Shown piece by piece: positions 4,927 through 25,348 of a DNA stretch of 64,000 nucleotides (position 1 is its first letter; every line of letters begins with the position of its first letter). The notes under the pieces were generated by a model. The model had not been told where the DNA came from. It searched no databases and saw nothing but the letters and a program-made list of their open reading frames with translations. Made by a program: the position numbers and the translations under genes. The stretch comes from a virus. Location: positions 32,001-96,000 of IMG/VR virus record IMGVR_UViG_3300045974_000102; one strand, 5' to 3'.

Positions 4927-5300
4927 TATTGATCAAAGACCCCGCCTATATAGAAGTGATTAAGCGCATACATTTTTGGTGTTACTCCCATGTCATTAAC
5001 CTTTCCCATAATCTTAGCATTAAATCTTCCACCTGTATGCTGGACATATACTAGTTCACCAGCTTCATATTTATTGCCTGCCATATAGTCATGTTGTGAG
5101 CACGATATGATAGCCTCAACTGCTGGATTAAAAGTGCCTTCTCTTTCTAGCACAACAGTAAAAACACCATGACCATCATCTATACTTTTTATTATACCTC
5201 TACACTGCTGAGGAGTATTGGTTGTATCTGTTGTGCGATTAAGCATGTCAATGCCTAACTCACTTACATCATTAAATAATCCTGCTATATTACCAGACAT
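4926..5300 (-). CDS. Putative OB-fold spike-associated protein (124 aa)
   Basis: RGIIKSID...YEAGELVYVQH pattern like gpV/gp5 N-terminal OB folds; follows the hub gene. Confidence 0.4.
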   Translation of the reverse strand: MSGNIAGLFNDVSELGIDMLNRTTDTTNTPQQCRGIIKSIDDGHGVFTVVLEREGTFNPAVEAIISCSQHDYMAGNKYEAGELVYVQHTGGRFNAKIMGKVNDMGVTPKMYALNHFYIGGVFDQ

Positions 5301-8300
5301 TATGCTTTCTCCTTACACCACTTAATTACAGCGTATCTCTTTTCTGCATAATTCTTCTCAACATCATAATTATGCTTTAGCTGCTTAGAGCTTTCGCCTT
5401 TAGGTATCGGATTGTTATCTGCATCAAAGCCTCTGCATTGCATACCATTATATCTCCAATAGCTTAGCTTATGGATAACCTCTCTCTTAGCCCAAGGATC
5501 TGTGCCTTTATATTCGCCCATATATCTTGTTTCTGCATCTATAGCTCTTTCTGCTATATGTTTTACACCAGCAAATATAACCCATTTTGCATACTTCACA
5601 TGATTATCACTTAAGTCTTCCCAGCTTCTTGGAAACGCAGGAGTCTTTGTTTTAATCCAATCTGCATCCTGAGCCATTTCACGAATAATCTTATCGACCC
5701 ACTCTTTACCATGAGAGCCATCTTGTCCAGCAGATAGTTGCATTAAGCCAATGTCGCTTGACTTAGCGTGTGCATTAAATGAACTTTCACACTCTATTGT
5801 TGTAGCTATCATTAATGGGTCTAGAAGTGGAGTTGTATTTTTATACTTATTAAAAGCTCCTAATACCCAACTGAACAATACTTCTGGTGTTGCTATATCT
5901 TGGTTCTTCTTGTTCATTTGCTCAAGCTTCCATTTAATATATTCAATCCCTTTACCTGGTGGCACAGCCTGTAGGTCAGCTAGTGATAGAGGTGTTCCAG
6001 GATATGCCTTTTTGAATTCTGATGGGCTCATGTCTGCCATAGCGCCTGGTAGTGGATTAACTACATTTCTATTTGGATTCTCAAGCTTAGATATTCCTGT
6101 CCAGTTGACTGAGGTGTAGTCACCTATCTGACGTAGTGTATTGTCAATTGTTTTCTTGTAGTCTGCTATAATTCCTTTACCAAACATGAATGCATCATTA
6201 TTTTTATAGCCTTCCATACCTTGCATTAGTAGTGAATTACGATACCATATAGGATGCACTATTATTGCATTATTCTTTGTGATAGACTTAATAGCCATGC
6301 TCTCAAACAACTGCGGTATCATCTCTATACAAGTAAGTAGTAAATATGCTATACCAGCTTTCATAGGAGCTGCATGGATGATTGTGCCAAATGGACTAAG
6401 GGCTAATCTTTCTCCAAAGCTTCTCTTCGCCATTGCAGTTATAGTTGCTCCAGCCTCAGCTTCTACAGCTGCGGCTACTGGTTTTGTGGTAAGCGCCTTA
6501 GCTAGGTCTGACATAAGATTTTTCTTCTTTAATAGATTACGCGCAACTGTTGATTCAGCCCCTGCTCCGAATGTTGCTTCTTCGAGAGCTTTCGCTATTT
6601 CTATTTCTGACATACCAAGTATTTCAGCACTTTCTTTCTTAAGTATCGTAGCTATCTGATCTATTAAACTCTTTCTGCTATGGGCTGCCCATTTCTCAGC
6701 GAGTGTAGTAGCAAAGCCTTTTACATTAGTTAGTATCTCTCTAGCCCTAAACTTAGCTCTTGCTGCGTTTCTGCTTAATACTCTTTGCTCAGCACTATAC
6801 ATCCTCTCTGACATTATAAATTCATCTGCACCTCTAAGCCAGTGCATTAGCCCGCCAAAGAAATAGCCAAACTCTCCAGCAGACACCATAGCATTAAAGC
6901 CCATTGCTTCTTTAGCTAACATAGGCACATATTCGTATTCACGTCTTTCCATAGCTGCAGTATCTGGATTTGCTTTTCTATTCTTTGCTTCATCACTACC
7001 TATGACCTGACTGATAAGAAATGCCCCACCTGCTATAAAGGCAAGTGCAGCTAATACCCAGACACCCATTGATCCTAGTGCGTATCCTCCTATTGCTTGT
7101 AGGACTCCTCCTACACCAATCGTGCCTATGTGTTCAAACATAATTCGTTTGAATACTTGTGCTGTGCTTAAATACGAGTCATGGTTGACTGAACATACTA
7201 GGTTAGGCACTATATGAGTTGTATAGCCCATCTCTGAGTCGAACTTATGTATAACAGTTTCTACTTCAACCCAGCCATACATCTTGTTTACTTTGTCAGC
7301 AATGTATATCTTATCATAAGGCTCTATTTTAGAATTGCCTCTAATAATAAGTGTGCCACCATATAATCTTTCAGCACCTTCTTTAAGTCTGCCAATAGCA
7401 TATTGATTAGCCACGTCTTCATTGTCTGTCCAGTTTATAGATTCGAACTTTTTAATTAGATATGTTGGATCTATATCTGCATCAATACAGAACTCAGTTA
7501 CCTTGTCTGAGTCTTCTACGTCCTTCTGGTTCTTAGCATACTGAACAGTTATATGATTCCACCCTCTGTCAGGTGTAGCCTTTATGCCATTGTGTATAAT
7601 ATCTTTAAATGACGATACCATATGGTGTTTCTGAAATGGAATAAATGGTGCTACTGCATTGAAGAATTTGGTGCCTTCAGCAAATTCACCATATCTATTA
7701 AGCTTTGGCCCTAAGTTCTTAATTGCTTCTCTAATGCCTTCAGCATACATATCTGTGCTTAGTAGTGACATTGAGGTTAAGGATGGAGCCATTGCTTGAA
7801 TAGGGTCATCTGTTCGGAAATAATTCCATTCTGCTGGACCTAAAAATAGAGTTGAGCGGTTTCCATAAGGTCTTACATCTAGTGCATAGTTAGGATAAAG
7901 GCGCTTAATGTTTTGTAACACATCCCATATAGTAGTCTTATTATTAATATTAAAGTTAACGCCATGCCATAACTTATTCCAAATGTCAGGAGCATAGATA
8001 TTGTCATCTATTGGATTGTTACCAGACTGGAATATCTTATAGAAGTGCTGTCCTATTTCAAGACTTGCCTTCTCATTATTATATAGGGCTCCAGCGAATG
8101 AGCATCCTATCTCACGGATACGTCCTGCAAGAACGCTTAGATAACCATGCTCACCTTGCTTGCCCCACCATTTATGCATAACTTCTTCTGTCCAGATGTC
8201 TGGCACATGTGTTAGTGGTTTATATAATGTTGCTATAGATGCACCTGCAGCAGTTAGAGCCATATATCTAAATAGTTGCTTAGGTCCGAGAAAGGCCGCT

Positions 8301-24800: not shown

Positions 24801-25348
24801 GCATCTGTTTGATTAAATATACCAAGTGACATGTCTGATATATTTAAGTATTTATCACCTACAGGTATTACGTTGTTAGTTATTAGGGCTCTGTTAATCT
24901 CTCTGGGACCAAGCACTTCCATAGCATAGTGCACTTGTCTATCACTTAACCCCTTCCCTGCTATATCCTTTTTAGTTAGATAATTATAAAGGCCTTCATG
25001 TGTTTGCGTCTGTATTCTTGACTTTTTAACATTAGTGCGTTGGCCGCGTATCATCTTGAATTCTTCTACGTGGCCTTGACTGTGGACATTTAGATCTCTT
25101 ATTGAGTGAGGATTGGTTACTTGGATATGATGGATAGTGTCGCTTAAACCTGGTTCCATATAAGCCATTTGCAATAGCTCCATATGTCCATGTGAAAGCA
25201 AAATTTCATCTGCTGATGGCAATGCCCTTCTACCATCTTGCATCTTCGATAAATTATAGAAGAAGAAATTTAAATGATTAGTTTCGATATCTATAAACAT
25301 CGAGATGTCTTTTAGATATTTAGTGTAATCATTATTAGAAGCTGCCAT
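18893..25348 (-). CDS. Tape-measure-position protein with N-terminal DEDDh exonuclease and internal DUF559/Vsr-like endonuclease (2151 aa)
   Basis: Directly follows the tail chaperones; FIDIET, WNTDFD and HVAGAD exonuclease motifs; several hydrophobic helices; FE...IDMV...LEADGVSFH...DAKRQRELEQEGWSFLRV domain. Confidence 0.7.
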   Translation of the reverse strand: MAASNNDYTKYLKDISMFIDIETNHLNFFFYNLSKMQDGRRALPSADEILLSHGHMELLQMAYMEPGLSDTIHHIQVTNPHSIRDLNVHSQGHVEEFKMIRGQRTNVKKSRIQTQTHEGLYNYLTKKDIAGKGLSDRQVHYAMEVLGPREINRALITNNVIPVGDKYLNISDMSLGIFNQTDAQVQALLEGLNGNIEMKSMTQEAFYNKAEKQGLFNVLDNLMNDATAGKVKNIMTWNTDFDIPAMLVQLAKRDKKAYERFKGLYEAGKINFIGAEHDWQLLAFRLAKEDRNIMERLTININPIAFKETAGRIARAPNTFEEFQHAIFWKVEDVANLFSWHSKVKPFFNGKELHVAGADTRLEVALKAAFGDVMDEFKNSLTKGNHGDELKHGIDKVLRSDIGGQFLHQAFQNVMERETQKQGYSVSELTQQMLGLIDKRTSSIKKGFSSIYASKSGGFTPSMFGGGGGAGGGGGGFFHNAMNFMEHNRAATKIAQYSSLAGVFALLGAATYFGGGDKKQKLSSSSMSFNKTGISNEYKTYSSGNEADGASALTMVGRLGALGFTAGLSLWSVGFSAMLHDPNLLGAHKSKVIPTNLGEAMTMLGRTMLYGARKIEAAVPTFRLFRVSSMHEYMGRGSQRFIGDVDEATGQLSGKWKRFSTINGGRIRGLHDHGIAVDDLLASIQDTNPEVFDEISEILKPTRIPDKVKKNIIKISTQPNGAAVIWYQEFDEASNAINQSLNGDRMGRKFVLDVNLNISKLRTASAKNVNSFNRATGEFTRQVNPIVFGRVQESLVRSGASYKIPLDEYLKTARKSDFMKRNPTFQPIWKAIETVKWHLDMLPKGIGGGTNLLYKNMGKMTRDADTALLVQSYRGAKRWSKEGIHQMARHWGKAFREITINPMNQFLETPFEVLFVDNKFMGKTIDKLTKSHNPIYTMAGRALEFINAPHLGLPVYDMKGGIPRYFMDIGIKRILPAYAAYKAFDLANHMLGALTFDKGSGPLTGLPIAAYHKAQLAYSKISDILGLTRMAKRQEQAAPGSTGLGVLAPAISAATTVLFAQHLYKTGPSYIRRSFDKVGRDLLKSNIQVAPWLRQALRPEKFVGAVTKTGSQRAFNWLIQNPKTAAFGLLMAPMIPFLPGFLGSNKTYEERKAIINGNRDIEVRKNRGWILSPTPYQGGKVIQYRREALNLIQSDWQNKGVIYPSYGHRLLNSFTFGLFDRYMLEDYHAESQPVYKSSQYGQNIPLLGPLIAATIGRVIKPQKEYHKPGEGELGNPFERGIYQSLKAQGYDVYPQINEGNYYIDMVIRDGSKYAALEADGVSFHSGKKKIKDAKRQRELEQEGWSFLRVRSDNYFNDPSAEMQRVFDELDSRGIKPNFFGGGGIPDDKADQYYERAVAKNLRLAVDIQHNNSAIDSTPQLYEAMKRSDNLFGQNMIKMWDQGTEYSGFKGFMFRSLYQFAAGKKGIDSYVPRKADASAMYDPAQIMWGWRAGDITGIGGEFLRRVFTNPRSKWTINDLPNELFGVNWIPQREEDIWNSERSKQSIDYTHGTTFDKAPQGWLMTSRKGWEFLFPEVKGMDLEEYPDPVRLEILQQIAPYSSEFRNTSASVLQLAIGNNLSPAEEQRYYDTLTQVGELKKQIFAHSQEYTQSIATEDRSGVVDWADLETGEFGLEGDETTYRAAGVSNRVQDIRARLLQKFRYDDTSQLANDALEIQKSSMSAMASHLSPGKRIDMQVAAPESMPDMSKGLEAYVSGMQEDMWDEGSPFADTGNLASHNLAQDKIGSYNTFLAGYWENMTDKSTFWDRKLIPNRDYLTNYLDYQVFGKEVRLWQHPIEHLLKPMIANIGHRVFGIDTIPSFTAERREKQQYWDIIKYLKYKMLANQSSDAGDYQEAEFYHAKWRSTMIGADPTDNSLRDELTALPQNERAYFDFFANESSPEKRGKIFKFLPEASKRLYKGLWAKRLAEAGSERDREEFAEIQANEAFDLSDSDIRQYMHETDGTGITRGDWARSKIIQQYSNSHALPGTDWLGWSPDVDIEKVEVLALKDQGEQIEDYGFFDDHLVRAVYSPGAYQSAIDINSIHNTSATMTGEILPYIAQNDVIQSSHGAPVTSPNAMMHLEETTDEEDHRVRKRYDKYGGILLSQFQYLY

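Follow-up and report, generated by a model that had tools for sequence, protein, structure and literature searches.

A predicted single-chain RNA polymerase in the tape-measure slot of an uncultured contractile-tailed phage

What does a phage with a contractile tail encode at the position where a plain tape measure and a baseplate hub would be expected? Virion-delivered RNA polymerases (RNAPs), which let a phage start without the host enzyme, are known from N4-like, crAss-like and phiKZ-like phages and from the siphovirus P23-45. The question is raised here by a 64-kb window, the whole stretch of DNA analysed, which comprises bases 32001-96000 of a linear 115,882-bp viral record from IMG/VR (IMGVR_UViG_3300045974_000102; completeness ~56% by CheckV estimate). 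The genes of the window lie almost entirely on the minus strand, as do all of its features described below. At the tail locus three giant open reading frames (ORFs) follow one another back to back, with gaps of 9 and 12 nt: giant 1 (P0003; 18893-25348, 2151 aa), giant 2 (P0002; 13538-18883, 1781 aa) and giant 3 (P0001; 5300-13525, 2741 aa). An earlier interpretation made from the letters alone, hereafter the sequence-only reading, had placed proteins of these lengths here, each combining Gly/Ala-rich hydrophobic helices with enzyme motifs, and had taken them for a candidate ejected enzyme kit. Inspection of the ORFs confirmed the coordinates and lengths, and Gly/Ala-rich hydrophobic segments were found in all three giants; ORFs this long with dozens of homologues are not products of chance. 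Our central result is that giant 2, to judge from its modelled structure and invariant residues, is a single-chain RNA polymerase with two barrels, in the order beta then beta-prime. It is flanked by a homologue of gp145 of Bacillus phage 0305phi8-36 (giant 1) and by a hub-type homologue of gp147 of the same phage (giant 3).

The polymerase core of giant 2

Standard annotation leaves giant 2 blank. It has no match in Pfam, PHROGs, NCBIfam or the sequences of the Protein Data Bank (PDB; phmmer), nor in isolated phages (tblastn against 50,697 phage records; megablast). The ESM Atlas gave no usable match, and a word-indexed homologue search returned P0002 alone. An exhaustive HMMER search, by comparison, gathered a family of 43 clusters, mostly of 1700-1900 aa. 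In alignments of 25-32 members that share only 17-24% identity, six residues never vary (R1260, P1262, D1302, D1304, G1305 and D1306). They spell out R-x-P ... NADxDGD, the signature of the catalytic barrel in beta-prime. The metal-binding loop itself reads NADHDGD (aa 1300-1306; 14966-14986) and follows T-R-Y-P at aa 1259-1262. The best PDB matches of the family profile, weak at E values of 0.09 and 1.2, are phiKZ gp55 and a bacterial beta-prime subunit, and both align at NADFDGD.

The predicted structure agrees with the motif. An AlphaFold (AF2) model of aa 421-1620 has a predicted local distance difference test score (pLDDT) of 81 and a predicted template modelling score (pTM) of 0.81. All significant matches listed by Foldseek for this core are RNAP beta-prime chains, the top one being the non-virion RNAP of AR9 (2.7e-5). 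In a fold search independent of Foldseek, covering 48,161 chains, the top 16 matches are RNAP large subunits, and bare double-psi beta-barrels (DPBBs: CDC48-N, VAT-N and designed ones) match the catalytic barrel. The best structural or profile matches of the catalytic part include 7s01_d, 7s00_C and 7ogp_A. P23-45 gp96 and phi14:2 gp66 fall outside the top 50 fold matches, which is no evidence that the folds differ.

Two modules can be delimited from these structure matches: a beta/Rpb2-like module (aa 427-934; 16082-17605), followed by a beta-prime/Rpb1-like module that includes the catalytic DPBB (aa 953-1620; 14024-16027). The second of these holds a beta-prime-type DPBB whose DxDxD metal-binding loop is marked both by the invariant D1302, D1304 and D1306 and by the fold match, and the beta-type DPBB, the barrel that supplies basic residues, was also recovered. 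At the N-terminus lies a Gly/Ala-rich hydrophobic helix (aa 14-32; 18788-18844), and at the C-terminus another hydrophobic helix (aa 1673-1691) followed by a conserved tail of ~85 aa (DPNDLPSVNNP ... LLTD ... PY; helix and tail 13541-13867). Giant 2 is thus modelled as a one-chain beta/beta-prime two-barrel RNA polymerase whose Mg-binding loop is intact and which has a hydrophobic helix on either side. The sequence-only reading had assigned an RNA polymerase to this giant, and both the DPBB fold and the invariant motif bear it out.

Searches with Pfam polymerase profiles add little. PF00623 (RNAP) found no match in the full record of this phage or in two further genomes (G001 and G005), with a control that matched 14 of 14 genomes; this profile is too insensitive here because it misses P0002 itself. 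PF05183 and PF00940 likewise gave no match in the same three genomes, and their controls were blank too, making the result uninformative.

The tail locus, its relatives and the flanking giants

Upstream of the trio are genes for the portal, the major capsid protein, a collagen-like fibre, the tail sheath and the tail tube. The sheath gene (30050-32386) matches phrog_16991 (1.7e-16) and, by tblastn, the sheaths of Acinetobacter phage ME3 and Moorella phage MTATph1, while the tube gene (29349-29993) matches by tblastn ORF140 of 0305phi8-36, which carries the record note 'tail tube'. The downstream boundary of the module is a Baseplate J-like wedge protein (2881-4086; PF04865, 1.3e-10; phrog_6, 2.7e-23). 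Because sheath and tube genes lie upstream of the trio and Baseplate_J downstream, we regard the phage as contractile-tailed, and the sequence-only reading was right to speak of the tape-measure locus of a myovirus. Directly upstream of giant 1 lies a gene of 191 aa (25335-25910) that has no family match in PHROGs or Pfam searches. It is a candidate tail-assembly chaperone, since its position equals that of gp143/144 of 0305phi8-36, annotated 'tail chaperonin'. The trio fills the slot between the tail tube and chaperone genes and the baseplate genes. The tube gene and its neighbour at 27930-29261 also match phrog_9206, labelled 'major head protein', where the 0305phi8-36 record has tail tube and tube paralogue; the PHROG label looks like a propagated mis-annotation.

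The order of the trio is kept in five of five other IMG/VR contigs (39-207 kb, one of them CheckV-complete at 206,638 bp), as the sequence-only reading had suggested should be surveyed. Each of these loci has a gene of ~191 aa, the same in size and position; the giants that follow it measure ~1950, ~1750 and ~2500 aa, and next comes a J-like gene of ~400 aa. Each contig encodes one polymerase giant, always in the same slot. A scan of GTDB genome contigs found no relatives.

Among cultured phages, local tblastn showed the tail block to be collinear with those of 0305phi8-36, ME3 and MTATph1, the shared set being sheath, tube, tube paralogue, an ORF142-like gene, giant 1 (equivalent to gp145) and giant 3 (equivalent to gp147). 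On this homology the phage is assigned to the 0305phi8-36-like lineage of jumbo myoviruses, with the trio corresponding to its gp145/gp146/gp147 module. The GenBank record of 0305phi8-36 flags gp145 and gp146 as virion proteins (mass spectrometry) and annotates gp146 as a hypothetical tape measure, an assignment made from tail length (PMC2147016). Both gp146 and ME3 gp036 resemble giant 2 in closing with a hydrophobic helix that is followed by a tail.

Two of the cultured middle genes have features of their own. ME3 gp036 (L008:15173-19984), which has N- and C-terminal hydrophobic helices like those of giant 2, contains R-E-P and, after ~43 residues, G-G-D-H-D-Q-D-Q, a spacing like that in the beta-prime barrel of giant 2. 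It may hold a cryptic, highly diverged version of the polymerase; the motif is a lead only, as it has no HMM or hhalign support. The module of MTATph1 (L009:18539-21869) is broken after the middle protein and before the hub by a transposase gene and small ORFs; the end with hydrophobic helix and tail sits on a separate ORF of 313 aa, as though the middle gene had come apart.

Giant 1 begins with a DEDDh (DnaQ-like) 3'-5' exonuclease domain (aa 1-400; 24149-25348). D20/E22 (Exo I, DxE), N238/D242 (Exo II, NxxxD) and H354/D359 (Exo III, HxAxxD) occur in order and are invariant in 13 full-length homologues. A model of aa 1-450 (pLDDT 88) recovered the RNase H-like exonuclease fold; with this region Foldseek found the exonuclease halves of family-B polymerases, and in a wide fold search the top 50 matches were all DEDD exonucleases (RNase T, Exo I, TREX1). 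By its residues the exonuclease appears catalytically intact, in line with the exonuclease predicted for this giant. The best-conserved part of the protein is its C-terminal ~1100 residues (aa ~1000-2100; 19049-22351), which have dense invariant columns and hydrophobic segments at aa 1042-1060 and 1125-1143. This is also the part that matches gp145, ME3 gp035 and MTATph1 CDS26 by tblastn. An IMG/VR scan with the exonuclease domain alone found nothing beyond the same five contigs.

The sequence-only reading had also given giant 1 an endonuclease. The domain is there: an MTES_1575/Vsr-like PD-(D/E)XK insert (aa 1277-1369; 21242-21520) matches PF18741 at 3e-22 (78.9 bits against a cut-off of 38.2), shows the core motifs Y-I-D-M-V at 1302 and L-E-A-D-G at 1316 (model core D ... 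ExDG..H), and matches the nuclease ends of Hhe and ProA in NCBIfam. All three of the folds or families named beforehand (DPBB, DEDDh and PD-(D/E)XK) were recovered. What did not hold is the membership of the endonuclease in the kit. It is complete in only two of the 13 giant 1 homologues, P0003 and its closest relative P0004, the others having a short linker, and for this reason we consider it a lineage-specific insert outside the conserved set. In P0011, a partial giant 1 relative of 2420 aa, intein and LAGLIDADG domains (PF14890, PF14528) are present; taken with the endonuclease inserted here, they suggest that mobile nuclease elements use the giant 1 gene as a landing site.

Giant 3 is best conserved in a core at aa ~1500-2120 (7166-9028; phrog_20474, 3e-35). 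By tblastn, aa 1506-2120 match gp147 of 0305phi8-36, ME3 gp037 ('baseplate hub') and MTATph1 CDS32, proteins that bear 'baseplate hub' or 'endolysin' labels. Hardies et al. tied gp147 to T4 gp27 and P2 gpD by hidden Markov model (HMM) comparison and described a hyperplastic hub with exchangeable wall-degrading domains (PMC2147016). Giant 3 is accordingly predicted to be an expanded gp27-type hub, the link to gp27 running via its homology to gp147.

The hub and lytic transglycosylase proposed for giant 3 in the sequence-only reading fared unequally. The hub is supported through homology to gp147 and the ME3 protein; the transglycosylase is weak in this protein, where PF01464 scores 14.6 bits (E 0.025), below its cut-off of 21.3. 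The C-terminal transglycosylase-like domain (aa ~2560-2700; 5426-5848) does keep the E-S and GLMQ motifs, as E-C-E-S-S at 2578 and GLMQL at 2593, and the family profile matches MltE/EmtA (0.036) and an SLT domain from a tape measure. Seven relatives of giant 3 carry PF01464 at scores that pass Pfam, and others exchange this C-terminal end for a glucosaminidase, NlpC/P60 or tail lysozyme domain. At the N-terminus lies a degenerate staphylococcal-nuclease-like region (12926-13348), recognised from the match of the family profile to thermonuclease (7.7e-4). Most relatives (among P0019-P0028) start with an apparently intact staphylococcal-nuclease domain in which DGDT ... R..G.D..E is kept. Giant 3 here reads DGSS and LAGVDAKG, the nuclease residues having been lost, as they have been in its closest relative.

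Proposed delivery with the tail, its parallels and its alternatives

A tape measure fused to a virion polymerase is a real precedent, as the sequence-only reading had said: P23-45 encodes the tape-measure-fused virion RNAP gp96 as well as a non-virion RNAP, gp64 (PMC10770324). Like giant 2, gp96 is a two-barrel polymerase with DxDGD in the tape-measure slot and has membrane-type segments; a second, smaller two-barrel polymerase (a probable one here) is encoded elsewhere in the genome in both cases, and the proposed logic, in which the virion enzyme begins transcription at the entry pore, is the same. The differences are considerable. P23-45 is a siphovirus that joins polymerase, tape measure and wall-degrading domain in one chain of 5002 aa, whereas the present phage has a contractile tail and spreads the functions over three genes, with the polymerase a separate protein of 1781 aa and the hydrolase in giant 3. 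An exonuclease also accompanies the polymerase here, and the beta-then-beta-prime arrangement of giant 2 appears closer to the multisubunit RNAPs of AR9, phiKZ and bacteria than to gp64-type enzymes. In the tblastn search of the 50,697 isolated phage records, giant 2 showed no sequence similarity to P23-45 gp96 or to phi14:2 gp66.

The virion polymerases of other phages share single traits with this locus. Jumbo myoviruses of the phiKZ/AR9 type inject a polymerase and provide the best matches for the catalytic part of giant 2, but their enzymes have four to five subunits, whereas giant 2 is a single polypeptide with a hydrophobic helix on each side of its core, and its gene belongs to the tail module. 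The phiKZ-type virion polymerase set is packaged in the capsid. CrAss-like phages, such as phi14:2 with its gp66, have a giant single-chain two-barrel virion polymerase beside other giant proteins, and they possibly share a host phylum with this phage, a weak hint taken from one relative binned in a Tenuifilaceae metagenome-assembled genome (MAG). They are podoviruses with capsid cargo. N4 is a podovirus too and stores its proteins in the capsid, and its virion RNAP (vRNAP) is a T7-like single-subunit enzyme of unrelated fold. The ejectosome described for N4 (Schitoviridae), made of gp50 (the vRNAP), gp51 and gp52, resembles the trio in that three proteins are ejected together, a giant polymerase among them, and are proposed to span the envelope and to become transcriptionally active (PMC13434306).

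The closest parallels in gene order are 0305phi8-36, ME3 (gp035-037) and MTATph1 (CDS26-32), which have the same series of sheath, tube, tube paralogue, chaperone slot, three giants and V/J baseplate genes. They differ in content, at least in 0305phi8-36: the homology of gp145 spans the C-terminal half of giant 1 alone, tblastn found no exonuclease there, and the middle gene is read in the literature as a plain tape measure (PMC2147016). In the jumbo-phage survey of Iyer et al. the only enzyme given for 0305phi8-36 is YonO-like. Searches of the full-text literature found a tape-measure-associated virion polymerase for the siphovirus P23-45 only and a three-protein ejectosome with a polymerase for N4-type podoviruses only. 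The sequence-only reading knew of no such combination for a contractile-tailed phage, and these searches found no example of one.

The parallel with P23-45 extends to a second polymerase. Beyond the end of the window, on the plus strand at 104979-108044 of the full record (G000; L026:8979-12044), a 1021-aa ORF, P0087, contains G-R-N-P and, after ~40 residues, G-D-E-D-G-D. Its homologue in the complete 206-kb relative (BLASTP 4e-20) reads R-H-P ... N-G-D-F-D-G-D, and its nearest ESM Atlas clusters belong to PF05183, the QDE-1/YonO family (score 0.96). P0087 has no match in Pfam, the PDB or isolated phages, and hhalign to the giant 2 family profile is also blank. From the motif, the homologue and the ESM Atlas lead, P0087 is probably a YonO/QDE-1-like second, non-virion RNA polymerase. 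Its presence strengthens a two-polymerase model, with a virion and a non-virion enzyme as in P23-45, and 0305phi8-36 likewise has a YonO-like polymerase gene, orf99 (PMC2147016).

We propose, at a probability of roughly 55%, that the trio is the module inside the tail of an uncultured jumbo myovirus belonging to the 0305phi8-36 lineage, and that it is present in the virion and expelled on contraction; the phage would thus probably bring a transcription enzyme of its own into the host. What the analysis itself shows is folds, catalytic residues, gene order and homology, whereas the place in the virion, ejection, the conduit and the enzyme activities are inferred. Giants 1-3 would be built into the virion together with the tail and expelled when the sheath contracts. 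Giant 3 would then cut the peptidoglycan of the wall, and the hydrophobic segments of all three giants may insert into the envelope, forming or lining a conduit for the DNA. Tethered by its two helices, giant 2 would transcribe the first-entering genes independently of the host polymerase; one of these genes may encode the YonO-like polymerase, to which transcription would then pass. At the entry site, the 3' ends of DNA or RNA would be the target of the giant 1 exonuclease.

Several points weigh against this proposal. The polymerase clade has no isolated member and is known from genes alone. No similarity could be detected between giant 2 and either gp146 or the MTATph1 middle protein, both of which lack a DxDxD motif, and the giant 2 family profile (hmmsearch --max, hhalign) gave no significant match to the middle proteins of 0305phi8-36, ME3 or MTATph1. 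Since motif and similarity are both lacking, the virion presence of gp146 transfers to giant 2 by position and architecture only. The structural matches of giant 2 are at middling Z (8-10) and come from a 1200-residue model. A folded polymerase core of ~135 kDa cannot fit the narrow lumen of a tail tube and would have to be unfolded, extended or located elsewhere. Any of the three giants may be the ruler, the tape-measure position fitting both giant 1 and giant 2, and gene timing is unreadable because the record is only ~56% complete.

The size of the polymerase bears directly on the question of location. Instead, the capsid might be where the giants are stored, as ejection proteins like those of N4, T7, crAss-like and phiKZ-like phages; they would leave through the opened tail, and their place among the tail genes would then be a matter of co-regulation. 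We consider this unlikely, and take it as a serious rival because the folded core cannot sit in the tube lumen. The polymerase and exonuclease folds are globular and suit that lumen poorly, and the established giant virion RNAPs other than that of P23-45 are capsid cargo (crAss-like and phiKZ-like phages and N4). The mass spectrometry of 0305phi8-36, for its part, shows presence in the virion, not location. Storage in the capsid sits badly, however, with the homology of giant 3 to a gp27-type hub, a part of the baseplate, with the place of the trio, which in all loci is flanked by the chaperone-position gene on one side and the baseplate genes on the other, and with the reading of gp146 as a tape measure from tail length (PMC2147016).

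The remaining alternatives concern what the proteins do. That the delivered polymerase serves mainly a job other than early gene expression seems quite unlikely: it might pull in the genome by transcription, make primers or other RNAs, or act with the nucleases against host nucleic acids or defences. Polymerase-driven genome entry is established for T7. Such a job would suit an exonuclease that is always encoded in the gene adjacent to the polymerase, the apparently intact staphylococcal-nuclease domains of giant 3 relatives and the endonuclease inserted in giant 1 of this phage, and polymerase-driven entry has been discussed for orf99 of 0305phi8-36 (PMC2147016). Against it, the second, YonO-like polymerase fits a relay from virion to non-virion enzyme like that of P23-45. 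Early expression and these other roles are not mutually exclusive and can coexist. It is highly improbable, in our view, that the enzyme-like domains are inactive relics serving as structural bulk and that the giants amount to nothing more than a tape measure and a hub of unusual size. In giant 3 of this phage the N-terminal region resembling a staphylococcal nuclease has indeed lost its catalytic residues, and the cultured relatives get by on a middle giant lacking the polymerase motif. Across sequences of only ~20% identity, however, every catalytic residue in the polymerase loop and in the DEDDh exonuclease is invariant, and such invariance is not expected without selection on catalysis, which weakens the relic explanation.

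A broader claim can be made, which we put forward only tentatively. These phages may form a sizeable, unpublished clade of jumbo contractile phages in which the plain tape measure of the 0305phi8-36 lineage has been replaced by an active single-chain beta/beta-prime polymerase, loaded with the tail and expelled with the exonuclease and hub giants as a transcription-competent trans-envelope ejectosome, which would be the first for a contractile tail.

Other features of the record and meaning of the locus

Further observations concern the remainder of the record. Inside the structural block, a gene at 36011-37258 has both glycosyltransferase and methyltransferase PHROG matches, and the collagen-like fibre gene (42367-44145) lies near it. 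The right arm of the record has many intergenic gaps of 160-400 bp. It contains (L026:12937-13331, 16338-16366) a 33-nt pair whose copies are 335 nt apart and three copies of A-G-T-G-T-C-G-T-G-C-T-A-T-C, repeats that could be phage promoters or operators; a promoter-motif search of the right arm yielded few repeats, of two or three copies, and these were unconvincing. One DNA sequencing run of a pond metagenome contains DNA of the phage and may be its source sample; no RNA run is listed.

An intact polymerase core of the cellular type in the tape-measure slot of a contractile tail would extend the virion-polymerase strategy to another type of tail. It also suggests that the 'tape measure' genes of large phages hide enzymes missed by standard annotation, as Pfam, PHROGs and NCBIfam were all blank for giant 2. 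For work on polymerase evolution, giant 2 offers a new deep-branching single-chain beta/beta-prime enzyme, and the family of ~43 clusters defined here is open to expression and assay. The locus raises the physical question of how a polymerase of ~135 kDa is stored in a tail and passed through it. If ME3 gp036 is a diverged polymerase, the ejectosome idea would become testable in a cultured phage.

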